NCBI GenBank assembly: GCA_964449675.1 | Contig: CAYVAR010000001.1 | Coordinates: 44,877-108,876 of the forward strand | Reading direction: 5' to 3' | Source: an uncultured Gammaproteobacteria bacterium | Lineage (GTDB): Bacteria > Patescibacteriota > Microgenomatia > UBA10105 > UBA927 | DNA: 64,000 bases | Shown: positions 2,947-63,800 of the stretch, piece after piece | Layout of the letters: every line of letters begins with the position of its first letter | Numbering within the stretch: position 1 is the first letter of the stretch | Program-made: the position numbers and the translations under genes | Notes under the pieces: generated by a model | Told to the model about the DNA's origin: nothing | Databases searched by the model: none | What the model saw: the letters and a program-made list of their open reading frames with translations, nothing else

Positions 2947-3327
2947 ATGCCGGCAACGAAAAAAACTGTAAAAACAAAAAAAGAAGCGAAAAAAGTATCG
3001 CCAAAAGTTAGTCTAAAAAAATCTTCTGGAAAAAAGATTAAAAAAGAGGAGCCAGTGGTACCGGCACCGAGCGAAGAAAAGCAGGTAATTATTGCTCAAT
3101 TTCAGGTGAAACAGGGTGATACCGGTAGTCCCGAAGTACAAGTAGCGCTTCTAACCAAACGCATCGAAAAACTCGTTATGCATTTAAAAACCAATCCATC
3201 AGACAACCATTCTCGCCGGGGACTTTTGGGGATTGTCAGTAAAAGGCGTAGACTTCTAAACTACCTAGAAAAAAAAGACGGAAAACGCTACAAGGAAGTA
3301 GCAGTGAAACTAGGACTCGGCAAGTGA
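2947..3327 (+). CDS. rpsO: 30S ribosomal protein S15 with a Lys-rich N-terminal extension of about 40 aa.
   Basis: [20 protein letters not shown] ... [20 protein letters not shown] matches the conserved S15 core. The gene lies upstream of pnp, the conserved rpsO-pnp order. Confidence 0.85.
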
Positions 3328-3463: not shown

Positions 3464-5629
3464 ATGAAAATTGTAAAAAAATCACTTGAACTAAATGGAA
3501 AACCATTGACGCTTGAAGTTGGACGATTTGCCCAGCAGGCAAGCGCTGCTGTGCTTGCCCAGCATGGTGACACAATGGTACTTGCAACGGTTACTGCGTC
3601 AAGTCGCGAAACGACGCTTGATTATTTTCCTCTTTCCGTCGAGTATGTCGAGCGTTTGTACGCAGGGGGACGCATCAAGGGATCCCGGTGGGTCAAGCGC
3701 GAAGGGAGGCCTTCAGATGATGCAGTCCTTGCGGGCCGCATAATCGACCGATCGATACGCCCGCTTTTCCCAAAAACGTATAAGCACGATGTACAGGTTA
3801 TTATTACGGTCTTATCTGTAGACGGTGAAAATGATCCTGATGTATTAGGGTTGGTTGCAACAAGCGCCGCAATAGCTATTTCTCCGATTCCATGGAGTGG
3901 TCCGATCGGAGGCGTTCGTGTGGGATATGTCAAAGATAACGGCAGAAGCGAATTTCTCATAAATCCAACAGTCACGGAACAAGGATTATCTGAATTTGAT
4001 TTTGTCGTCGCAAGTTCAAAAGGAAAAACAGTCATGCTTGAAGGAGGATTTTGTGAAACTCCGGAAGATGTAGTTTATACCGCTGTCCAAAAAGCAAAAG
4101 AAGCAAACGCGAAGATCATTTCATGCATCGAAGATCTTGTCAAAACAGTCGGAAATACGAAGCTTCCCACACCTGTAGCTAGTGCGGCAGACGAACTAAA
4201 AGCCAAGATAATGAAGGATTATAAAAAAGAGATGGACGAGGCTTTTGCCAAAAAAGCCCAAAAGGAATTTGGCGGAGAAGAGATAGGAGAACTTGCCAAA
4301 ACAATCCAAGAAGCGTACGCAAATGAGTACACCCTTAAAGCCATAGAAGATGCCCTGGACACACTCTTTAAAAAACGCGTGAAAGAAGATGTTTTGACCA
4401 AAGGCAAACGATTTGACGGACGAAGTTTAGATGAAATTCGACCGCTTGATGTTGCCGTTGGCATACTTCCTCGTACGCACGGTAGCGCTATGTTTACGCG
4501 TGGACAAACCCAGGCTTTGACCGTTGCAACCCTAGGAACACCAAGCTTAGAACAACTTATAGAAAGCCCAGTTGGAGAAGAATCAAAACGGTATATTCAT
4601 CACTACAGTATGCCGCCCTATTCTGTCGGAGAAACAGGACGCATCGGTACACCATCCAGGCGTGAGATAGGGCATGGTGCTTTGGCTGAGCGCGCACTTT
4701 TATCTGTCATCCCATCAGAAGAAGATTTTCCGTATACCATTCGTTTAGTGAGCGAGATTATGTCCAGTAACGGCTCCACTTCTATGGCTAGTACGTGTGG
4801 ATCGACCCTTGCGCTTATGGACGCTGGAGTACCGATAAAAGAACCAGTCGCTGGTATCTCCATAGGGCTTATGACTGACAAGAAAAAGTTTGTGCTTCTT
4901 ACTGATATCATGGGGATAGAGGATTTCGCGGGCGATATGGACTTTAAAGTGGCTGGAACAAAAAACGGCATTACAGCCATACAGCTCGATATTAAAATCG
5001 ACGGACTGACGGATGAGATAGTTGAACAAACATTGGGTAAGGCAAAAATTGCGCGGATGAAGATACTGGAAAAAATGCTTTCAGTTATCAGTACCCCCCG
5101 TAAAAAACTTTCTCAATACGCGCCAAATGTCAAAGTAGTCAAAATCCCTACGGACAAAATCGGAGAAGTCATTGGTCCGGGTGGGCGAGTTATACGGCAA
5201 ATTATCGCCGTTACCACTGCAACCGTTGATGTCAATGACGATGGATCGGTCGTTATATCGGGAAGTGCTGATGCCGTCGCAAAGGCTGTCGAGTGGGTTG
5301 AAGGGTTGACCAAAGAAGTGCAACCAGATGAAGAATACGAAGGCGAAGTCAAGCGCATACTACCGTTTGGTGCATTTGTCGAAATTCTTCCCGGGAAAGA
5401 AGGCATGGTGCATGTGTCCCAAATGTCTACGAGTTACGTCAACGATCCCAACGATGTCGTAAAGCTTGGTCAAAAAGTGAAGGTTCGGGTAATGGAAATA
5501 GACGATCAACACAGGGTCAATCTCTCAATGCTTTTTGGCGAGGATGCAAAAAAAGCGCCGGTGCGAGAACGTCGAGATTCTTCAGATCGCCCACGGAGAT
5601 CTTTTGATAGAAATAGAAAGAGATATTAA
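3464..5629 (+). CDS. pnp: Polynucleotide phosphorylase (PNPase).
   Basis: Two RNase PH domains, a KH domain and an S1 domain are recognisable, including FTRGQTQAL, the GIEDF-AGDMDFKVAG motif and the KH GPGG motif. The ATG at 3464 is in frame within ORF 3350..5629. Confidence 0.95.
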   Translation: MKIVKKSLELNGKPLTLEVGRFAQQASAAVLAQHGDTMVLATVTASSRETTLDYFPLSVEYVERLYAGGRIKGSRWVKREGRPSDDAVLAGRIIDRSIRPLFPKTYKHDVQVIITVLSVDGENDPDVLGLVATSAAIAISPIPWSGPIGGVRVGYVKDNGRSEFLINPTVTEQGLSEFDFVVASSKGKTVMLEGGFCETPEDVVYTAVQKAKEANAKIISCIEDLVKTVGNTKLPTPVASAADELKAKIMKDYKKEMDEAFAKKAQKEFGGEEIGELAKTIQEAYANEYTLKAIEDALDTLFKKRVKEDVLTKGKRFDGRSLDEIRPLDVAVGILPRTHGSAMFTRGQTQALTVATLGTPSLEQLIESPVGEESKRYIHHYSMPPYSVGETGRIGTPSRREIGHGALAERALLSVIPSEEDFPYTIRLVSEIMSSNGSTSMASTCGSTLALMDAGVPIKEPVAGISIGLMTDKKKFVLLTDIMGIEDFAGDMDFKVAGTKNGITAIQLDIKIDGLTDEIVEQTLGKAKIARMKILEKMLSVISTPRKKLSQYAPNVKVVKIPTDKIGEVIGPGGRVIRQIIAVTTATVDVNDDGSVVISGSADAVAKAVEWVEGLTKEVQPDEEYEGEVKRILPFGAFVEILPGKEGMVHVSQMSTSYVNDPNDVVKLGQKVKVRVMEIDDQHRVNLSMLFGEDAKKAPVRERRDSSDRPRRSFDRNRKRY

Positions 5630-6010
5630 ATATTCGTCATCCCGACCGAAGCGGAGGGATCTTTTTTTAAATGCCTGCAAAGAAACAGTATTACGTTTAT
5701 ATCTTACGTAGCAAATAGGGAGTATTGTACATCGGCATTACAGATAACCTCGTAAAGAGAATCTGGCAACACAAACAGAAATTTGTAAAAGGATTTACTC
5801 AGAAATATAACATTGACCAACTCCTCTACTACGAAATTTTTCAAGATCCACTCACCGCTATTGCTAGAGAAAAACAGATTAAGAAGTGGAGTCGAAAGAA
5901 AAAAGTACTATTAATAATAACTACAAATCCGACATTTCGGGAAATTTTCATTGAAGACATACATTAATAAGTGAGATTCCTCGACTTCGCTCGGAATGAC
6001 AATTAGTATA
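5630..6010. mobile_element. Putative small mobile element: a GIY-YIG nuclease gene bounded by ~28-bp terminal inverted repeats.
   Basis: The left end TTCGTCATCCCGACCGAAGCGGAGGGATC (5632-5660) and the reverse complement of the right end GATTCCTCGACTTCGCTCGGAATGACAA (5978-6005) match at about 22 of 28 positions. Related ORF-less copies occur at 61036-61150 and 63655-63775. Confidence 0.45.
5671..5967 (+). pseudogene. GIY-YIG nuclease family protein (UPF0213/YhbQ-like) interrupted by an in-frame TAG codon.
   Basis: The frame reads MPAKKQYYVYILRSK-TAG(5716-5718)-GVLYIGITDNLVKRIWQH..., so the canonical YVYIL ... LYIG ... GIY-YIG N-terminus is split by a single in-frame amber. The listed ORF 5725..5967 is only the portion after the stop. 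Confidence 0.5.
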
Positions 6011-6023
6011 AGATAGAAGAAGT

Positions 6024-7139
6024 ATGTCAAAACTTACAGATGAAGTTGAAAGTCTTCGAAAAAAACTTACTGAGGTGAAGGTTCCCAAAGAATTAGTCAA
6101 TCGAGTAGAGGGAAATTTAGACGAATTACTCCGGATTGAACACGACATTACCGCACGAGCTCATGTGGAACAGATATTGCGGTATGCAGAGTGGGTGATT
6201 GATCTGCCTTGGAATGTGCGGACGAACGATGTTTTAGATCTGGTGAAAGCACAAGAGATACTCAATAAACATCATTATGGACTTGAACCGGTAAAAGAAA
6301 GAATTTTGGAATACTTAGCAATATTAAAGCTTAATATCGACAAATGGAAAAAAGAGTCAGATGTGAACGTCGCCAGTCGAACTGCGCAGATTGCCAATGA
6401 TGCCAAACTTTCTCACGCAATTTTAGCGCGAAGAGCGCCAATATTATGTCTTGTCGGACTTGTGGGTACTGGAAAGACAACGCTTGCAAAATCGATTGCT
6501 GAGGCGATGGGACGCAGATTTGTGCGTATTCCTTTTGGTGGCATGGCAGATGCCTTGGATCTACGCGGACAGTCACGAGTGCGGCCGGATGCGGAAATCG
6601 GACTTATTCTCAAAGGGCTTCGCTTTGCGGGAAGTAAAAACCCGGTCATCCTTCTTGATGAAATCGATCGTGTCGCAGAACAGGCCAGGGGAGACATAAT
6701 GGGAGTTTTAGTCGAGCTTCTCGATCCCGAACAAAATGCTGCGTTTACTGATCACTATTTGGATTATCCGTTTGATTTATCAGAGGTACTTTTTATCGCA
6801 ACAGCCAATAATACGACAAATATCGCAACAGCCGTCCTTGACAGGCTAGAACCGATCCAAATGCCGTCATATACAGACGAGGAAAAAACAAAAATTGCCC
6901 GGGATTATGTGTTGCCGCAACTTATGAAAGAATCGGGACTCACGAGCGAAAATTTAACCATCGATGCGTCAATTTGGCCAAGGCTTGTTCGTCCGCTCGG
7001 TTACGATGCAGGCATCAGAAGTTTGGAGCGCACGATGAATAGTTTATGCCGTAAGGTAGCCCGGATGATCGTTGACGGCAAAGGAAAAAGCTTCCACGTG
7101 ACGAGTGATAATATAAAAGATTTTATTGATATTTATTAA
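6024..7139 (+). CDS. Lon-like AAA+ ATPase comprising only the helical region and AAA+ module. Both the N-terminal LAN domain and the C-terminal S16 protease domain are absent.
   Basis: The sequence aligns with the Lon middle region: HHYGLEPVKERILEYLAILK matches the Lon DHYGLERVKDRILEYLAV, and Walker A GLVGTGKTT, Walker B ILLDEID, sensor-1 ATAN and arginine-finger LDR are all present. It ends at 7139, 54 bp before rnj, leaving no room for a protease domain. Confidence 0.75.
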   Translation: MSKLTDEVESLRKKLTEVKVPKELVNRVEGNLDELLRIEHDITARAHVEQILRYAEWVIDLPWNVRTNDVLDLVKAQEILNKHHYGLEPVKERILEYLAILKLNIDKWKKESDVNVASRTAQIANDAKLSHAILARRAPILCLVGLVGTGKTTLAKSIAEAMGRRFVRIPFGGMADALDLRGQSRVRPDAEIGLILKGLRFAGSKNPVILLDEIDRVAEQARGDIMGVLVELLDPEQNAAFTDHYLDYPFDLSEVLFIATANNTTNIATAVLDRLEPIQMPSYTDEEKTKIARDYVLPQLMKESGLTSENLTIDASIWPRLVRPLGYDAGIRSLERTMNSLCRKVARMIVDGKGKSFHVTSDNIKDFIDIY

Positions 7140-20014: not shown

Positions 20015-20044
20015 ATGTTATCATGTTTTAAAACAAGATAACAT
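20015..20044. repeat. Copy 1 of a 30-bp AT-rich palindrome, ATGTTATCATGTTTTAAAACAAGATAACAT.
   Basis: Identical to the copy at 59837-59866 and near-identical to the one at 21704-21733. It lies about 20 bp downstream of the cutA stop on the minus strand. Confidence 0.5.
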
Positions 20045-20066
20045 GATTTATGTCAGGAGACTTCTG

Positions 20067-21703: not shown

Positions 21704-21733
21704 ATGTTACTATGTTTTAAAACATGATAACAT
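21704..21733. repeat. Copy 2 of the 30-bp palindrome, ATGTTACTATGTTTTAAAACATGATAACAT.
   Basis: It lies about 10 bp downstream of the stop of the 21746..22060 gene on the minus strand, directly abutting the cupin gene start. Confidence 0.5.
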
Positions 21734-21745
21734 GGATACGAGCAT

Positions 21746-24053: not shown

Positions 24054-26420
24054 ATGAAACTGCCGGGTGCGATAGCTTCCATTTTTTCCAAAAAACCTGA
24101 ACCAAAAGAGGTGATCCTGTCTCTTCTTCTAGATACCGATGCGGTGTCGGGAGCAATTTGGACGCGCGTAAAAAAAGGGGAAGTATCTGGAAAAAAAACA
24201 ACGCCGTCACTTATAAAAACTGTTAACCGTGATGTATCGCAAGATTTGTGGGAAGAACGATTAAAAGCAGCAGATAGCGCGGTATCGGAGCTAGATGAAG
24301 CAGTTGGAGCGACAAAAATCAACGATGTGGTTTTGGGAGTTCCGGCAGTATATTTAACCCCAGATGGTGATATAGAAAAATCAATACAAAAAGAGATTCG
24401 TCATATAACCTCAACTCTCGATTTAACTCCTATCGGATTTGTGGGTGTGCATCAGGCGATCGCCCATACGCTCAAACGCGATGAGGGAGTACCACCAACT
24501 GTAATTTTGCTTAGTGTTACGAGCGATGCTCTCACCGTAACTTTGTATAAAGTAGGAGTGCTTATCGGACAAAAGATGACAAAAAACGAAGGAGAAGTAG
24601 CGCAAAAACTTGAGCATATCCTCAAAAGCTTTAAAGAACTTGAAATTCTTCCATCACGTATACTTTTGTATGGAAATAATAGGCAAGCTCTTGAGGATAC
24701 ACAAGCAAAACTTCTTCGGTACCCATGGCAGACCAAAGCAAATTTTTTGCACTTTCCAAAAATCGAACTATTACCAACGGATTTTGCTGTGGTTGCTGTA
24801 TCAGTCGCAGGAGCGACAGAGTTATCCCAACAAATGGGTGAAGATATAGAAGAAACATATCCATCTGAAGCCCAAGACACACTTCAAAAACACGAGAACA
24901 TCAATGCAGTACCTTTGAAAGAAGAAACTCCATTGCCAGATGAGGAAGAGAGGAAGATGGGAAGAGAGGAAGATGGGAAGAGAGGAAGATGGGAAGAGAG
25001 AGACAAAGAAAACGAGGAAAATATTGAATCAGAAGACAAGAATGCCCTTGATATTGAAGAGTCAAATGTTACTTTGGTGACGCCTGAAGAGCTGGGATTT
25101 GCGCATGGAGATGGGCTCCATGCTGATGACTATAAGGATAATGCCCAACCACTACCGAAACAATCATCTACTGAAAATAATGGTCCGGAAGACAAAGCTC
25201 ATGAAATGATCACTACAGAAAAGACACCAGCTGTATCATTCTCTCATCTTCCGAAATTTTTTTTCCATCTCCCTATATTACCGAGATCCGCAGTGTTCGC
25301 ACTTTTTGGTTTTATCATCGTGGGTTTTGGAATATTTGGACTTACTGCGTGGTTTATCCCAAAAGTAGCTGTGACGGTTTTTGTCATCCCGCAGCAAGTT
25401 GAGGAGTCAGCCGTCGTGACAATTGAACCAACGGCGACTGTTGTTGACCCACAAAATAAAATTATTCCGGGAAAGAAACAAGAAAAAATAGTAAGCGGCG
25501 AAAAAATAATTCAGGTAACAGGCAAAAAGAAAGTTGGTGAACCTGCAAAAGGAATTGTCACGATATTTAATAAAGCAACAACAAACAAATCGTTCAAAAA
25601 AGGAAGTATCATCGTATCAAATAGTTTGTCATTTACTCTCGATGATGATGTACAAGTGGCCTCGGCAAGTGAAAATTTAATAAGCGGCACAGTGACCTTT
25701 GGGAAAGGAACAGTCGGCATCACCGCATCAGAGATTGGAGGCCAAAGCAATCTTGCATTGGGGAGTGAATTTACTTTTAAAGATATCGCCTCAAGTGTAG
25801 CAATCGCTCGAAACGAAAAAGCACTATCTGGTGGAACAAGTCGCGACGTGACAGTCGTATCGCGTAGTGATTATGATACTCTGACGAAGTCGCTTACTCA
25901 AGATCTCGTAGAGAATGCCAAAAAGGAGCTTGCGACAAGTGTTGAAGGAAGTGAAAAACTTATCGATGAGACAATAAAAACGTCAGTTTCGGAAAAATCT
26001 TTTACCGAAGAACTAGATCAAGAAGCGAGTGAACTTCATGGGAAACTCACCCTCGTTATGTCTGGTATTTCATATAGTGAGCATGACATCGCGTCACTTT
26101 TGTCGTCAGTTGTAGCAGATAAAGTACCACAAGGATATACGGTAGATACGACAAGTGTTACGACATCGATTGAAAATGCACTCATAAAAAAAGATGGCAC
26201 GATAACAGTGTCGACGAGTCTGAAAGGGAGCGCACTTCCTTCTTTAGATATAGAGGAAATAAAAAAGAATATTACCGGAAAAAAACTTGATACATCGCAA
26301 GATTACCTCAAGCGCCTTCCGGGTGTCGGGGGAGCTGAGTTTCGATTCAGATTTTCTCTCTCTAAAGATAAACTTCCTGCCAATAGCCACAATGTTTCGA
26401 TATCGATAGCAATACAGTAA
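24054..26420 (+). CDS. Large hypothetical membrane protein: an N-terminal cytoplasmic domain, an acidic repeat linker, one transmembrane segment and a beta-rich extracytoplasmic C-terminal domain.
   Basis: 788 aa. A single transmembrane segment lies near residue 420 (FALFGFIIVGFGIFGLTAWFI). The linker contains the EEDGKRG tandem repeat. There is no LPXTG motif. Confidence 0.5.
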   Translation: MKLPGAIASIFSKKPEPKEVILSLLLDTDAVSGAIWTRVKKGEVSGKKTTPSLIKTVNRDVSQDLWEERLKAADSAVSELDEAVGATKINDVVLGVPAVYLTPDGDIEKSIQKEIRHITSTLDLTPIGFVGVHQAIAHTLKRDEGVPPTVILLSVTSDALTVTLYKVGVLIGQKMTKNEGEVAQKLEHILKSFKELEILPSRILLYGNNRQALEDTQAKLLRYPWQTKANFLHFPKIELLPTDFAVVAVSVAGATELSQQMGEDIEETYPSEAQDTLQKHENINAVPLKEETPLPDEEERKMGREEDGKRGRWEERDKENEENIESEDKNALDIEESNVTLVTPEELGFAHGDGLHADDYKDNAQPLPKQSSTENNGPEDKAHEMITTEKTPAVSFSHLPKFFFHLPILPRSAVFALFGFIIVGFGIFGLTAWFIPKVAVTVFVIPQQVEESAVVTIEPTATVVDPQNKIIPGKKQEKIVSGEKIIQVTGKKKVGEPAKGIVTIFNKATTNKSFKKGSIIVSNSLSFTLDDDVQVASASENLISGTVTFGKGTVGITASEIGGQSNLALGSEFTFKDIASSVAIARNEKALSGGTSRDVTVVSRSDYDTLTKSLTQDLVENAKKELATSVEGSEKLIDETIKTSVSEKSFTEELDQEASELHGKLTLVMSGISYSEHDIASLLSSVVADKVPQGYTVDTTSVTTSIENALIKKDGTITVSTSLKGSALPSLDIEEIKKNITGKKLDTSQDYLKRLPGVGGAEFRFRFSLSKDKLPANSHNVSISIAIQ
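24951..24998 (+). repeat. Perfect tandem repeat, 3 x 16 bp (AGGAAGATGGGAAGAG), inside a coding sequence.
   Basis: Directly visible in the sequence. It encodes the EERKMGREEDGKRGRWEE low-complexity stretch. Confidence 0.6.
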
Positions 26421-47239: not shown

Positions 47240-47292
47240 TACATGATCAGGTGTTGATCATGTTCATTTATCATGTATCAATCTTTGTAGCT

Positions 47293-50200
47293 ATGGATAA
47301 AAAAGGAACGTTTGCAAATATTGTTGACTTTTCAGGTCTTCGCGTGACGCTTGCGTCGCCTGAGACGATAAAATCCTGGTCATACGGGGAAATTACCAAA
47401 CCTGAAACGATCAACTATCGTACGCTCAAATCGGAGAAAGACGGATTATTTGACGAGCGAATTTTTGGGCCGACCAAAGACTGGGAGTGTTACTGTGGAA
47501 AATATAAACGGATTCGCTATCGCGGTATTATTTGTGATAAATGCGGTGTAGAAGTGACACAAAGTAAAGTGAGACGCGAACGCATGGGACATATCGCTCT
47601 TGCCGCCCCGGTTGCGCATGTATGGTTTTTCAAAAGTGCTCCGTCAAAACTCTCTCTTCTTTTGGATATAAGCCCGAGAGCGCTTGAGGAAGTCATATAC
47701 TTTTCGCAGTATTTGGTGACGATGGTTGATGAAGACAAAAAAAAGTCTGTCCTTGCGCACGTTTCTGATATCGGGAAAAAACGATTACATGATGTTGACG
47801 GCCGCCTCAAGGATGAGAAGGGTACCCGTCATGAAGCATTTCAAAAAGAGAAAGAAACGTTGAAAGTTCGTTCACTTGGGATAGAAGCCAAAGAGCTTGC
47901 CATTTCAGAAATTGATCTTGAGGAAAAACAAGACCTCGCCCTCATAGAAGAAAATTCAACCAAGGAGAAAGGAAAGATTGAGGAAATCATAAAATCTCTT
48001 GAGAGCATAGTACGAAGCATTAAACCGCTTTCTACCCTTACAGAAGATGAGTATTTGCGGCTTCTTGAATACGATGCAGCGAACTGTTTTAGTGTTGGCA
48101 TGGGCGCTGAAGCAATCGTAGAAGTTGTCAAAAAGCTCGATCTTGATAAGCTCGCTTCTCATCTTCGTGAAGAAATTCAAAATTCTACCGGACAACGCCA
48201 TATTAAAGCGACGAAGAGGTTACGTGTTGTTGATGGTATGCGCAAAGCGCAAATTAATCCCTCCTGGATGATTCTTTCGACGCTACCGGTAATTCCGCCT
48301 GATCTTCGTCCCATGGTGCAGCTTACCGGAGGTCGCTTTGCGACGAGTGATTTAAACGATCTGTATAGACGGGTGATTAATCGCAATAATCGTTTAAAAC
48401 ATTTGATGGACTTAGGTGCACCGGAGATCATCCTCCGAAACGAAAAACGCATGCTCCAGGAGGCAGTTGACAGTCTCATAGACGCCACACAGCGCCCATC
48501 TTCTCGTGCGGTTATCGCACCACTACGGTCTCTTTCAGATATGCTTCGTGGTAAACAAGGACGCTTCCGTCAAAACTTACTCGGCAAACGCGTTGATTAT
48601 TCGGGTCGATCGGTTATCGTCGTAGGCCCTGAGCTTAAATTGACGCAGTGCGGTATCCCTAAAGAAATGGCTCTTGAAATGTTTAAGCCGTTTGTACTTC
48701 GAGAACTCATTGTCCGCGGTATAGCGCCAAATGTCAAAAATGCGAAAAATGTTCTAGAGCGCAGAACTCCAGAGGTTTTTGACATTTTAGAAGAGATTAC
48801 AAAAAATCATCCGGTTCTTCTTAATCGTGCGCCGACACTTCATAAGCTTGGTATCCAAGCGTTTTATCCGATTCTTATTGAAGGGGCTGCTTTGCGTATT
48901 CACCCTTGTGTCTGCGCCGGTTATAACGCTGATTTTGATGGTGATCAAATGGCGGTTCATATCCCGCTTGGTAGCGAAAGTCAGCATGAAGCCATTCACC
49001 TCATGTTGCCAACCCATAATTTGCTTAAGCCTGCTGATGGCTCACCGATCACTGTACCGAATAAAGAAATGGTACTAGGGTGTTATTATCTGACAACGAA
49101 CCAAGAAGATTTGATAAAAGACGAGAAGCAGTTGCCACTTTTTAGTGATACAAGGACGGCGATATATGTCTATCAAACAGGAACATTGTTGTTGCGGGAG
49201 CCAATACGCGTGATGATTGCAGGATCCGCGATGGTTACGACGGTGGGTAAAATCCTTTTTAACGAAATTCTGCCACAAGCACTTCGCTTCATCAATACAC
49301 CGGTCAAAGCAGCAACGGTAAAAACTATTATTACAAAAGCGCTAAGTCTTTACCCGAAAGAAGACGTCGTGACACTCATCGATGCGATAAAAACCATTGG
49401 ATTTTGGGGAGCGACGCTTTGTGGTGGACTATCTGTTTCTGTATTTGATTGTGAAATGATTCCAGAGAAAGCGGAAATTCTTTCTGAGGCAGAAAATAAA
49501 GTCACTGAGATAGATAATAATTATCAACAGGGACTCATCACGCTTGAAGAGAAAAAACGATTAAGCAATGAAGTATGGATTGAGATTACAGAAAAAATAG
49601 CAGATATGACGTGGCAAAAACTTCCGGCAGACAATCCTGTCAAGATGATAATAGACTCAGGGAGCGCCCGCGCATCCAAAGACCAACTCAAACAACTTTC
49701 TGCAATAAAAGGGCTTGTGGTTGATCCACTTGGAAAAATTGTAGAACTTCCGACGAAAAGCAACTACCGTGAGGGACTTGAAATATTTGAATACGTCACA
49801 AGTACCCGTGGATCCCGGAAAGGTTTGACAGATTCGGCACTCAAAACCGCCGATGCGGGATACCTTACGCGACGATTGGTAGACATAGCTCATGAAGCAA
49901 TCATACGGATAGCTGACTGTGGTACGAGTGAAGGATTTGATATCAGTCGAAACGAAAAGCGCCAGACGTCATTATCAGTGCGAGTCATCGGTAGATATAC
50001 GGCAGGAGATATTACCGCACCCAATAGTAAAAAGATTTTAGTGAAAAAAGGAGAGCTTATTGCAGAAAAGCATGCAAAACTTTTCGAAGAACACGGAGTT
50101 ACTGAAGTACTTGTGCGTTCACCGATTACCTGTCAGGCACAAGTAGGGCTTTGTGTCAAATGCTATGGCCGAGATTATGCAACGGGAACGGATGTAGAAA

Positions 50201-51006
50201 ACGGTACGCCGGTTGGAGTCATCGCTGCTCAATCAGTAGGGGAGCCTGGGACACAACTTACCATGCGGGTGCGACATGCAGGAGGAATTGTTGGGCTTGA
50301 CGTGACACAAGGACTGCCTCGCGTTGAAGAGCTTTTTGAAGTTCGCATGCCAAGAGTATTATCTCCAGTTTCCGAAATTGCCGGAAAAGTAGAAATTGTT
50401 GAAACAGAACAAGGATACAAAGTACGCGTCAAAAATACCTCGATGAAGCCACCAGAAGAGCGCGAATACATAGTTCCGCTCACGAGCGAACTACGCGTTT
50501 CTGATCGTGATTTAGTAGTATCAGGTGATCAGCTTGCGAGTGGAAGCCTTGATATAAAAGAAGTTCTTCAGATCCGAGGACTTCGAGGTGCGCAAAAATA
50601 TCTTATTACTGAAATTCAGCGCGTCTATGAGTCACAAGGAATTCAAATATCCGATAAGCACTTTGAAGTAATTGTCAGAAAAATGAGCGAAAAAGTTCGC
50701 ATCGATACGTCAGGTGACACGATGTTATTACCAGGTGAGCTGGTAGACCGGATGCGATTTCAAGAAGAAAACGCACGAGTACTTGCTGAAGGAGGAGAAC
50801 CAGCGACTGCGCAAATCGTCATCCTTGGTATCACGCGAGCATCCCTTTATACAGAAAGCTGGTTATCTGCTGCTTCCTTTCAAGAAACAACGAATGTGCT
50901 CACCGATGCGGCTCTTGCGGCAAAAGAAGATAAGTTGCTGGGGCTTAAAGAAAACGTTATAATCGGGCGACTCATTCCTGTATCTAGTGATAGTGCACAA
51001 GTATAG
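47293..51006 (+). CDS. rpoC: DNA-directed RNA polymerase subunit beta'.
   Basis: Contains the zinc finger CYCGKYKRIRYRGIICDKCGVE and the NADFDGDQM catalytic motif. The start is at MDKKGT, in frame within ORF 47251..51006. Confidence 0.97.
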   Translation: MDKKGTFANIVDFSGLRVTLASPETIKSWSYGEITKPETINYRTLKSEKDGLFDERIFGPTKDWECYCGKYKRIRYRGIICDKCGVEVTQSKVRRERMGHIALAAPVAHVWFFKSAPSKLSLLLDISPRALEEVIYFSQYLVTMVDEDKKKSVLAHVSDIGKKRLHDVDGRLKDEKGTRHEAFQKEKETLKVRSLGIEAKELAISEIDLEEKQDLALIEENSTKEKGKIEEIIKSLESIVRSIKPLSTLTEDEYLRLLEYDAANCFSVGMGAEAIVEVVKKLDLDKLASHLREEIQNSTGQRHIKATKRLRVVDGMRKAQINPSWMILSTLPVIPPDLRPMVQLTGGRFATSDLNDLYRRVINRNNRLKHLMDLGAPEIILRNEKRMLQEAVDSLIDATQRPSSRAVIAPLRSLSDMLRGKQGRFRQNLLGKRVDYSGRSVIVVGPELKLTQCGIPKEMALEMFKPFVLRELIVRGIAPNVKNAKNVLERRTPEVFDILEEITKNHPVLLNRAPTLHKLGIQAFYPILIEGAALRIHPCVCAGYNADFDGDQMAVHIPLGSESQHEAIHLMLPTHNLLKPADGSPITVPNKEMVLGCYYLTTNQEDLIKDEKQLPLFSDTRTAIYVYQTGTLLLREPIRVMIAGSAMVTTVGKILFNEILPQALRFINTPVKAATVKTIITKALSLYPKEDVVTLIDAIKTIGFWGATLCGGLSVSVFDCEMIPEKAEILSEAENKVTEIDNNYQQGLITLEEKKRLSNEVWIEITEKIADMTWQKLPADNPVKMIIDSGSARASKDQLKQLSAIKGLVVDPLGKIVELPTKSNYREGLEIFEYVTSTRGSRKGLTDSALKTADAGYLTRRLVDIAHEAIIRIADCGTSEGFDISRNEKRQTSLSVRVIGRYTAGDITAPNSKKILVKKGELIAEKHAKLFEEHGVTEVLVRSPITCQAQVGLCVKCYGRDYATGTDVENGTPVGVIAAQSVGEPGTQLTMRVRHAGGIVGLDVTQGLPRVEELFEVRMPRVLSPVSEIAGKVEIVETEQGYKVRVKNTSMKPPEEREYIVPLTSELRVSDRDLVVSGDQLASGSLDIKEVLQIRGLRGAQKYLITEIQRVYESQGIQISDKHFEVIVRKMSEKVRIDTSGDTMLLPGELVDRMRFQEENARVLAEGGEPATAQIVILGITRASLYTESWLSAASFQETTNVLTDAALAAKEDKLLGLKENVIIGRLIPVSSDSAQV

Positions 51007-59836: not shown

Positions 59837-59866
59837 ATGTTATCATGTTTTAAAACAAGATAACAT
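59837..59866. repeat. Copy 3 of the 30-bp palindrome ATGTTATCATGTTTTAAAACAAGATAACAT.
   Basis: It lies 11 bp after the stop of the CvpA-CAP gene and 17 bp before the MGMT gene start, and is identical to copy 1. Confidence 0.5.
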
Positions 59867-59882
59867 GAAATGATTAGGAACT

Positions 59883-60257: not shown

Positions 60258-61031
60258 TTAGCTCGATAGCCAACCACCATCTACATATAGTGTCGCACCG
60301 GTGGTGTAACTTGCTTCGTTTGAGGATAGATACACGACTGCTCCTGCAATTTCTTCTGGTTTTCCTGCGCGTTTGAGTGGCACGCGGGAAAGAAACGTTT
60401 GGGCCTGCGTCGGGTCTTTAAGCATATTTTGTGTCATTTCTGTTTCGATGATTCCGGGGCCAATGCAATTGACAAGTATTCCCATTGGCGCAAGCTCATC
60501 AGCAAGCGCTTCGGTCATCGCGACAATACCGCCTTTGCTTGCGCAGTAATGTGCGACAGAGGGAAACCCTACGCCAACGCCGCCTGAGGCAATAGATGCG
60601 ATATTTATAATGCGCCTTCCGCCAGCTGGCGGATTATTTTTTTTCATTTCTCGTGCAGCTGCCTGAGCAACGAGAAAATACCCTTTGAGATTTGTGTCAA
60701 TGGTTTTATCCCACTGTGCTTCAGTCATATCAAGAAATGGACTAAACTCGGCAACTCCAGCATTATTAAGTAGTATATCGAGACGACCGTACGTTTGGAC
60801 TGTCTGGTTGATCGCTGATTGGATGTCCTCTTTTTTGGTAACATCCATTTGTACGGCAAGCGCTTCATGCCCGTTTTCTTTTATTTCCGTAGCAAGCGCC
60901 TTGAGCCGATCAATTCTTCGTGCGGCAACAGCGACTTTTGCACCCTGGTTGGCAAGGGCAATTGCCGAGGCTTTTCCGATACCGCTACTTGCTCCCGTAA
61001 CGAATGCAACTTTTCCGGTCAAATCAAACAT
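60258..61031 (-). CDS. SDR-family oxidoreductase (FabG-like).
   Basis: Contains TGASSGIGKA, NNAG and YCASKGG. Confidence 0.85.
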   Translation of the reverse strand: MFDLTGKVAFVTGASSGIGKASAIALANQGAKVAVAARRIDRLKALATEIKENGHEALAVQMDVTKKEDIQSAINQTVQTYGRLDILLNNAGVAEFSPFLDMTEAQWDKTIDTNLKGYFLVAQAAAREMKKNNPPAGGRRIINIASIASGGVGVGFPSVAHYCASKGGIVAMTEALADELAPMGILVNCIGPGIIETEMTQNMLKDPTQAQTFLSRVPLKRAGKPEEIAGAVVYLSSNEASYTTGATLYVDGGWLSS

Positions 61032-61035
61032 ATTT

Positions 61036-61150
61036 AGGAGTTACGCACTTTTGTCATCGCGAGACCGTTCTGACGGCGAAGCGATCTCTCATTGACGAAT
61101 ATGAGATTGCCGCGTCGCTCTCGCTCCTCGCAATGACAGTTTGTGTAAGT
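61036..61150. repeat. MITE-like copy A of the TIR-element family seen around the GIY-YIG gene.
   Basis: Left end ACGCACTTTTGTCATCGCGAG ... CGAAGCGATCTCTC; right end CGCTCCTCGCAATGACAG. It shares 25 bp plus further blocks with copy B (63655-63775) and with the ends of the element at 5630-6010. Confidence 0.4.
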
Positions 61151-61160
61151 CATGCATATT

Positions 61161-63637: not shown

Positions 63638-63654
63638 TACTGACTAACTACAGG

Positions 63655-63775
63655 ACTCACGCACTTTGTCATCGCGAGTCCGCGCACCATCCGATGGTGC
63701 GCGGACGTGGCGATCTCTCCGATATTTTAAAAATTGCTTCGCCAGCGGCTCGTAATGACAAGGAATACGTCGATA
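63655..63775. repeat. MITE-like copy B of the TIR-element family.
   Basis: AGGACTCACGCACTTTGTCATCGCGAG ... (perfect internal 13-bp palindrome TCCGCGCACCATC/GATGGTGCGCGGA) ... GGCGATCTCTC ... CTCGTAATGACAAGG ... CACTGCGTAAGTCCT, where the outer ends are themselves inverted repeats. Confidence 0.4.
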
Positions 63776-63800
63776 CACTGCGTAAGTCCTGTAACTAAAT

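Follow-up and report, generated by a model that had tools for sequence, protein, structure and literature searches.

Is a small GIY-YIG nuclease gene that lies between inverted repeats the driver of a mobile element, and are two gene-less segments with similar ends its miniature offspring? This question is raised by a locus in a 64,000-nucleotide stretch of DNA (the window, to which all coordinates refer unless a related genome is named) from a CPR/Patescibacteria bacterium, Candidatus Gottesmanbacteria. The preliminary description had read the locus as a transposable or homing element with an autonomous-looking copy, a YhbQ-like gene and MITE-like derivatives, and had called it an undescribed vehicle. 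The bracketing of the gene by inverted repeats of about 28 bp, on which this reading was founded, is confirmed; the arms measure approximately 27 nt. Gene and arms, in the following referred to as the ssn cassette, comprise three features:

5635..5661, + strand: left SRM hairpin of the ssn cassette, CGTCATCCCGACCGAAGCGGAGGGATC, with C-GTC head, stem ATCCC/GGGAT and C tail
5671..5967, + strand: ssn pseudogene, single-domain GIY-YIG, 98 codons, identified by PF01541 and homologue alignment, with an in-frame TAG at 5716-5718
5975..6001, - strand: right SRM hairpin of the ssn cassette, TGTCATTCCGAGCGAAGTCGAGGAATC, with T-GTC head, stem ATTCC/GGAAT and C tail

The open reading frame lies past the pnp stop codon (5627-5629) and ahead of the ATG (6024) of a lon-like AAA+ gene, at a place where the source annotation (JACQJW010000017.1, GCA_016204865.1) calls no gene. 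Its translation carries a GIY-YIG domain (Pfam PF01541, E=6.9e-17), and no NCBIfam model matches it. With 98 codons and the domain spanning residues 6-78, it has the single-domain build of Ssn proteins, i.e., about 90-100 aa without an extra DNA-binding domain. The frame is not intact. Codon 16 is TAG, at a position where homologues have Ser, Gly, Thr or Asn, and, the TAG aside, all 20 of the 20 invariant columns of the family alignment are kept. The TAG is known from a single assembly; independent contigs covering it were sought and none was found. Judged from the sequence, the frame belongs to the Ssn family by descent and is probably non-functional. Because the stop codon interrupts the gene, the copy can no longer be called autonomous-looking.

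Genes of this layout have been described. Ssn denotes a family of single-domain GIY-YIG proteins, cd10448 (GIY-YIG_unchar_3), and the usual arrangement of the gene is NTS-ssnA-NTS (Chenal et al. 2025, Nat Commun 16:2388; PMC11893778). Members from Neisseria and Wolbachia bind the NTS/SRM hairpins solely as single-stranded DNA, do not bind RNA and leave double-stranded DNA uncut. The nick lies 5' of the motif at a distance of a few nucleotides. Cutting depends critically on the three nucleotides (GTC) that precede the palindrome and binding on the C that follows it, and in Neisseria the system modulates natural transformation (PMC11893778). CGTC-tagged REPs, including dRS3 of Neisseria and RPE-4/RPE-6 of Rickettsia, had been catalogued in 2013 and were concluded to be without a dedicated enzyme; in Halothiobacillus neapolitanus, all dimers of such REPs are embedded in longer palindromes (Di Nocera et al. 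2013; PMC3733652). In the window, inverted repeats of this type lie on both sides of ssn, and the gene-plus-hairpin locus at 5.6 kb belongs to the already described Ssn/SRM system. The core of the observation is an independent rediscovery and no new category, and with these two publications the claim of an undescribed vehicle falls.

The association of gene and hairpin is not restricted to the window. Homologues of the GIY-YIG frame, 813 in number and of about 93-98 aa (87-103 aa overall), were collected, and a scan of one genome per species finds them in most bacterial phyla. By tblastn, 80 loci were obtained (E 1e-26 to 1e-31, 45-60% identity). Among the 79 homologous loci with readable flanks, which come from many phyla, 61 carry GTCAT on both sides of the gene, in sense orientation upstream of it and in antisense orientation downstream. 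A perfect AT+NNN basal stem follows 111 of 139 GTCAT heads, compared to 4 in a random-triplet control. Thirteen different stem triplets occur across the loci, each of them compensated, and this is strong covariation for the hairpin.

Two arm styles are found at ssn loci, a long-stem style ending in ATCCAG/T and a 'GAG..CGAAG..ATCTC' style. Homologues from beta-proteobacteria (Burkholderiales) and Rickettsiaceae (47-53% identity) have canonical arms of the Neisseria NTS type, and their long-stem arms depart from the Neisseria NTS CGTCATTCCCGCGMAVGCGGGAATCYRG at few positions or none. In many of the stems, tandem G.A pairs (GAG..CGA) and GAA/GNA mini-loops are seen, motifs that are very stable in single-stranded DNA. 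One related genome (L196) carries two ssn paralogues 1 kb apart (3001-3282 and 4345-4632 of that locus), each with its own arm subtype, one in CCC/GAC style and the other in TCT long-stem style. This is consistent with several Ssn/SRM pairs per genome.

The two ORF-less segments of the preliminary description also exist as described, with similar ends and with slightly larger extents (61034-61155 and 63650-63792). They are termed E1 and E2 here, and they are composed as follows, target-site duplications being abbreviated TSD:

61030..61033, no strand: left TSD of E1, ATAT, 4 bp, overlapping the start codon of an SDR gene (60258-61031, minus strand)
61034..61155, no strand: element E1, a 122-bp MITE-like composite, with an empty site in L171
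61034-61048: TIR-L of E1, TTAGGAGTTACGCAC
61052-61086, + strand: SRM of E1, stem ATCGC/GCGAT
61105-61138, - strand: SRM of E1, stem ATTGC/GCAAT, after a short spacer
61141-61155: TIR-R of E1, TTGTGTAAGTCATGC
61156..61159, no strand: right TSD of E1, ATAT, 4 bp
63646..63649, no strand: left TSD of E2, AACT, 4 bp
63650..63792, no strand: element E2, a 143-bp MITE-like composite, with an empty site in L168-L171
63650-63664: TIR-L of E2, ACAGGACTCACGCAC
63667-63715, + strand: SRM of E2 with an inserted 12-bp hairpin
63732-63760, - strand: degenerate SRM of E2, followed by a 17-nt spacer
63778-63792: TIR-R of E2, CTGCGTAAGTCCTGT
63793..63796, no strand: right TSD of E2, AACT, 4 bp

Together with the cassette, this makes six SRM arms in the 64-kb window (approximately 78 kb of the source genome were read). 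Each arm has the same design, namely a GTC head, a 5-bp stem of AT+NNN and N'N'N'+AT, and a C directly after the stem. By hand count from the GTCAT head on, the inverted cassette arms share 21 of 26 positions, and their stem triplets differ and are compensated in each (CCC/GGG and TCC/GGA). The left one starts 5 nt past the pnp stop codon. The right one, with a TC extension to 5973, is located 22 nt upstream of the lon-like ATG, and its sequence recurs unchanged as the downstream arm of a Parcubacteria ssn gene (L006). In the gene-less segments, the stems are CGC/GCG, TGC/GCA and CGC/GCG, plus a degenerate TAC/GCA. Altogether, the GTC head is present in six of the six arms, and the perfect stem and the tail C in five each; the exception is the arm at 63732-63760, whose stem has a single mismatch and whose tail base is T.

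A strict detector, which demands GTCAT, then a perfect 5-bp AT+NNN stem and then C, returns five modules and two outward-facing pairs in the window. In 300 Markov simulations the means are 2.9 modules and 0.003 pairs, and no simulation yields two or more pairs. Hence it is the paired arrangement that is significant; the module count alone is not. An earlier hairpin detector had been rejected as too permissive (48 matches versus 33 in shuffles), and a generic repeat finder did not detect the cassette arms in the window. Neither the published SRM pattern, HGTCWYN(0-2)YYVSBRHN(0-5)WNVSBRGN(0-2)RNCYNB, nor the published NTS pattern matches any of the six arms, which are of the 'GAG..CGAAG..ATCTC' style with only a 5-bp basal stem. 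The sole match to the SRM pattern in the window (50817) is located inside a long ORF (47251-51006) and is taken as chance. Since SRMs were found around 71% of homologues by the authors' own count (PMC11893778), the pattern is to be seen as a search heuristic and not as a definition. It misses the widespread GAG/ATCTC subtype, and SRM counts in the literature are therefore underestimates.

Two further repeats of the window were recorded. A 32-bp AT-rich near-perfect palindrome, ATGTTATCATGTTTTAAAACAAGATAACATGA, occurs three times (20015-20046, 21704-21735 and 59837-59868; 88-100% identity), each copy in a short intergenic spacer where it could act as operator or terminator. An 8-nt tandem array (GGAAGAGA/GGAAGATG) at 24944-25023 lies in a long ORF (24054-26420) and would encode a low-complexity stretch rich in Glu, Gly and Arg.

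How did the cassette come to its present site? For 80 relatives of the lon-like gene the surrounding DNA was fetched, and pnp-lon synteny is conserved in most of them. In none of the 80 is ssn located between pnp and lon. The spacer measures 9-40 nt and is free of repeats in several of these genomes, among them L093 and L091, whose Lon identity is 81%; the closest relative, L088 (94%), has a spacer of 118 nt. The L088 spacer was considered as a decayed cassette and rejected, as its similarity to the window cassette is undetectable (score 18 versus a shuffle mean of 18.4).

Other SRM sequences were met in the same spacer. L090 (4890-4980) has a gene-less NTS-style doublet, whose right arm TGTCATTCCCGCGCAGGCGGGAATCC departs from the published consensus of the Neisseria NTS only in its first base, T instead of C; the doublet, its arms being of the NTS type, was rejected as an orthologue of the window arms. 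L092 (4945-4980) has a solo SRM arm, and L106 (4330-4955) a composite MITE and a second doublet. These unrelated insertions suggest a recurrent insertion site just past the pnp stop codon.

The closest intact homologues (70-72% identity) are found in several related genomes at a recR-ssn-FeS assembly locus. Their arms, GTCATCCCGACC..GGAGGGATC and GGGATCCCTCGAC..CTCGGGATGAC, are of the same subtype as those of the window cassette, and the homology between the window cassette and the recR-locus cassettes ends at the heads. The cassette thus acts as a unit able to occupy different sites. In the relatives, the syntenic recR-ssn-FeS position looks like that of a resident gene. No target-site duplication flush with the heads was detected among plain SRM pairs and ssn cassettes (n=114).

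The gene downstream deserves a remark of its own. The 'Lon' gene (6024-7139) encodes 371 aa with an AAA+ module and a Lon lid, without a protease domain, and is followed by an RNase J gene; matches to the 371-aa query in 80 metagenomic relatives span nearly its full length. The lon orthologues (window 6003-6026; L088-L108) share a conserved TATNAT-like box approximately 6-9 nt before the ATG and have no Shine-Dalgarno sequence, which hints at transcripts without a leader. The insertion point of the ssn cassette lies immediately upstream of the box.

The gene-less segments show a different picture. Between the two TIRs of E2, the 7 outer positions that were scored all agree, and a hand count gives 14 matches in 15; the TIR-R of E1 has diverged and agrees with TIR-L at 9 of 15 positions (hand count). 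ATAT flanks E1 and AACT flanks E2 as target-site duplications, for which the preliminary description had advised to look. In the relatives L168-L171, the site of E2 is an empty 20-nt spacer between the genes of Crp and DUF5676, and in L171 the site of E1 is an empty 11-nt spacer at the orthologous junction of the SDR gene and a hypothetical gene. As these orthologous sites in relatives with conserved gene order are empty short spacers, E1 and E2 are insertions. Both combine TIRs, a flanking TSD, the lack of any ORF and empty orthologous sites, and we conclude that they are MITE-type elements carrying SRM pairs. E1 sits 2 nt upstream of the SDR start codon, between co-directional genes that are 11 nt apart in L171, and is thus probably part of an operon transcript.

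A search with the TIR consensus nCAnGAsTTACGCrc revealed three further composites with outward SRM heads, one in L106 (TSD TAAG) and two in the Woesebacteria genome L017 (AAAA and GAGA). Composites with flush 4-bp direct repeats thus amount to five elements in three genomes. Within 15 candidate TIR pairs (at most 400 nt apart), five have identical flush 4-mers, where 0.06 are expected and a shifted control gives 0. The SRM arms inside the composites vary between elements and the TIR is conserved. At all ten TIR ends of the five composites, an outward-facing SRM head is found within 1-17 nt, which suggests a functional coupling.

The TSD signature belongs to the TIRs, as the 114 plain SRM pairs and cassettes show none flush with their heads. 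For a 15-nt TIR the ssn cassette has no room, because its left arm begins 5 nt after the pnp stop codon. Moreover, E1 and E2 are not offspring of the pseudogene cassette, since they differ from it in arm subtype (CGC/TGC versus CCC/TCC) and the cassette lacks 15-nt outer TIRs. Of the proposed transposable element with MITE-like offspring, the status of the small copies as insertions therefore stands, and their descent from the cassette does not.

A transposase or any other ORF bounded by the 15-nt TIR was found neither in the window nor in approximately 1.9 Mb of fetched loci, and literature searches on the TIR sequence and on Nezha did not identify the TIR family. A scan of viral contigs for the TIR plus head gave 24 matches, all in apparently ordinary coding regions and all rated as chance. 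In Anabaena sp. WFMT (L034, 15106-15213), a 108-bp element has the same TIR (TAGGACTTACGCA / TGCGTAAGTCCTA) and apparently a 5-bp direct repeat (ACCAA), with no SRM inside. As the same TIR surrounds unrelated content there, the TIR family is common to a cyanobacterium and CPR bacteria.

Some traces of the repeats were also seen in assembly graphs. Independent Logan unitigs from four read sets (L084-L087) break off within the loop of E2's left SRM (63696), and two of the four have the TGTCAT head of E1 as their exact starting point (61052 or 61053); another unitig, the fifth (L002), starts where the right cassette arm has its inner edge (5973). As a hint, these breaks at SRM edges may point to extra copies or variants in the community.

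Taken together, the locus at 5.6 kb is probably a decayed Ssn/SRM member, and E1 and E2 are separate MITE-like insertions that carry the same kind of hairpin. The notion of the GIY-YIG gene as the transposase-like driver of an autonomous element, with the small copies as its MITE offspring in analogy to RAYT/REPIN, deserves attention, as an IS-like layout and the parallel to REP/RAYT had already been remarked by the Ssn authors (PMC11893778). In its favour, the small copies did insert, cassettes at different loci share homology only up to the heads, and an outward SRM head lies close to each of the 10 composite TIR ends. This notion is nevertheless unlikely: the ssn copy of the window is a pseudogene, the small copies differ in arm subtype and carry 15-nt TIRs that are absent from the cassette, plain SRM pairs and cassettes show no head-flush TSD, the same TIR bounds the SRM-free Anabaena element, and the intact homologues are syntenic (recR-ssn-FeS) across related genomes. 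To our knowledge, GIY-YIG nucleases have no strand-transfer activity, which also speaks against it. That a homing endonuclease and its recognition sites spread via double-strand break and repair appears extremely unlikely. The catalytic domain is of the GIY-YIG type and presence or absence varies among relatives, but the protein has no DNA-binding domain beyond its catalytic core of approximately 95 aa, neither an intron nor an intein surrounds the gene, the intergenic insertion sites show no sequence relationship to each other, and the characterised family members leave double-stranded DNA uncut (PMC11893778).

It also had to be asked whether the repeats are a family of structured ncRNAs or terminators whose linkage to the GIY-YIG gene is incidental, the ncRNA case being one that the preliminary description itself had named. 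The compensatory stem changes are strong, the whole gene-less elements fold well as RNA (z -3.7 and -7.4, with E2 at approximately -7), and every copy is found in intergenic DNA past the 3' end of a gene. An incidental ncRNA or terminator family is nevertheless very unlikely. Rfam at gathering thresholds has no match anywhere in the window, where no tRNAs were found either, and the doublets lack terminator-like sites and T tracts. The linkage to ssn in 61 of 79 loci across phyla is hardly incidental, and the published biochemistry reports binding to single-stranded DNA and none to RNA (PMC11893778). The arms occur as inverted pairs in co-directional as well as convergent intergenic contexts, so each transcript would contain an arm in sense along with one in antisense. 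Both inverted arms nevertheless preserve the asymmetric head (GTC) and tail (C), which argues for recognition at the DNA level.

How the decayed cassette and the separate insertions would have worked can be outlined from the literature on the characterised Neisseria and Wolbachia members, from which we infer single-strand binding and nicking. The ssn product would be a single-domain GIY-YIG endonuclease of approximately 95 aa that binds its own flanking hairpin as single-stranded DNA only. In the repeats of the characterised members, GTC forms the head, the palindrome opens with AT and a C immediately follows the stem, and the nick is placed a few nucleotides 5' of the head. In the window, arm, gene and inverted arm form one cassette between the pnp stop and the lon promoter, and the TAG at codon 16 would inactivate the gene. 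E1 and E2 each represent an outward-facing SRM pair inside a 120-145-bp element with 15-nt TIRs, inserted with a 4-bp target duplication. A TIR-specific transposase that acts in trans could move them; a less likely mover is an Ssn paralogue, encoded elsewhere in the genome, whose arm specificity matches. It seems improbable that Ssn hairpin pairs are the functional ends of a MITE family (15-nt TIR, 4-bp TSD) mobilised by an Ssn-type GIY-YIG nuclease. If this were true, Ssn would be a new kind of transposition enzyme, and the spread of CGTC/SRM repeats through bacterial genomes would be explained.

What is new, then, is the extension of the Ssn/SRM system to CPR bacteria, the arm subtype that escapes the published pattern and the comparative evidence for the movement of SRM pairs, given by empty sites and by five elements with TIRs and 4-bp duplications. 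The text of PMC11893778 makes no mention of CPR bacteria, pseudogenes, target sites or TIR/TSD-bounded MITEs, and the term target-site duplications is absent from PMC3733652; as far as these two papers go, TIR/TSD-bounded SRM carriers are an unreported detail. Their movement bears on the question left by both papers, i.e., how the repeats spread and whether they have a dedicated enzyme, and E1 and E2 provide concrete test substrates.

Among known systems, Ssn/NTS/SRM (PMC11893778) is in best agreement with the window locus in that a single-domain GIY-YIG protein of approximately 95 aa is encoded, inverted hairpins on either side of the gene have (C/T)GTC as head, AT at the start of the stem and a C directly behind it, and additional gene-less repeat copies are found in intergenic DNA. 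Unlike the published cases, the host is a CPR bacterium (Gottesmanbacteria), the gene is a pseudogene, the arms belong to the GAG..CGAAG..ATCTC subtype with a 5-bp basal stem that the published pattern misses, and the gene-less pairs sit within TIR/TSD-bounded MITEs. The CGTC-tagged REPs (PMC3733652) share the CGTC/TGTC tag, the stem starting with AT, a short unpaired tail and the frequent dimers, whereas their families have 8-9-bp stems and CCA tails.

UPF0213/YhbQ-type proteins are of the same fold family and of similar size. The relationship is only distant, as the nearest solved structures, PDB 1ZG2 and 1YWL, are reached by the family profile at E=1.5e-7 and 2.9e-5, and the label YhbQ-like is not retained. 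We know of no hairpin repeats associated with that family. REP/REPIN-RAYT and IS200/IS605 resemble the locus in a small nuclease gene between inverted hairpins, scattered hairpin doublets and recognition of single-stranded DNA; here, however, the enzyme is GIY-YIG and not an HUH/Y1 transposase, the head is GTC and not GTAG, and IS200/IS605 make no TIRs or TSDs, whereas the window-type composites have both. E1 and E2 finally match bacterial MITEs such as Correia/NEMIS and Nezha in being noncoding (122 and 143 bp), with 15-nt TIRs, 4-bp TSDs, empty sites and a stable fold. They differ from these in that no parent IS with their TIRs was found and in that their interior is a pair of Ssn-type hairpins.
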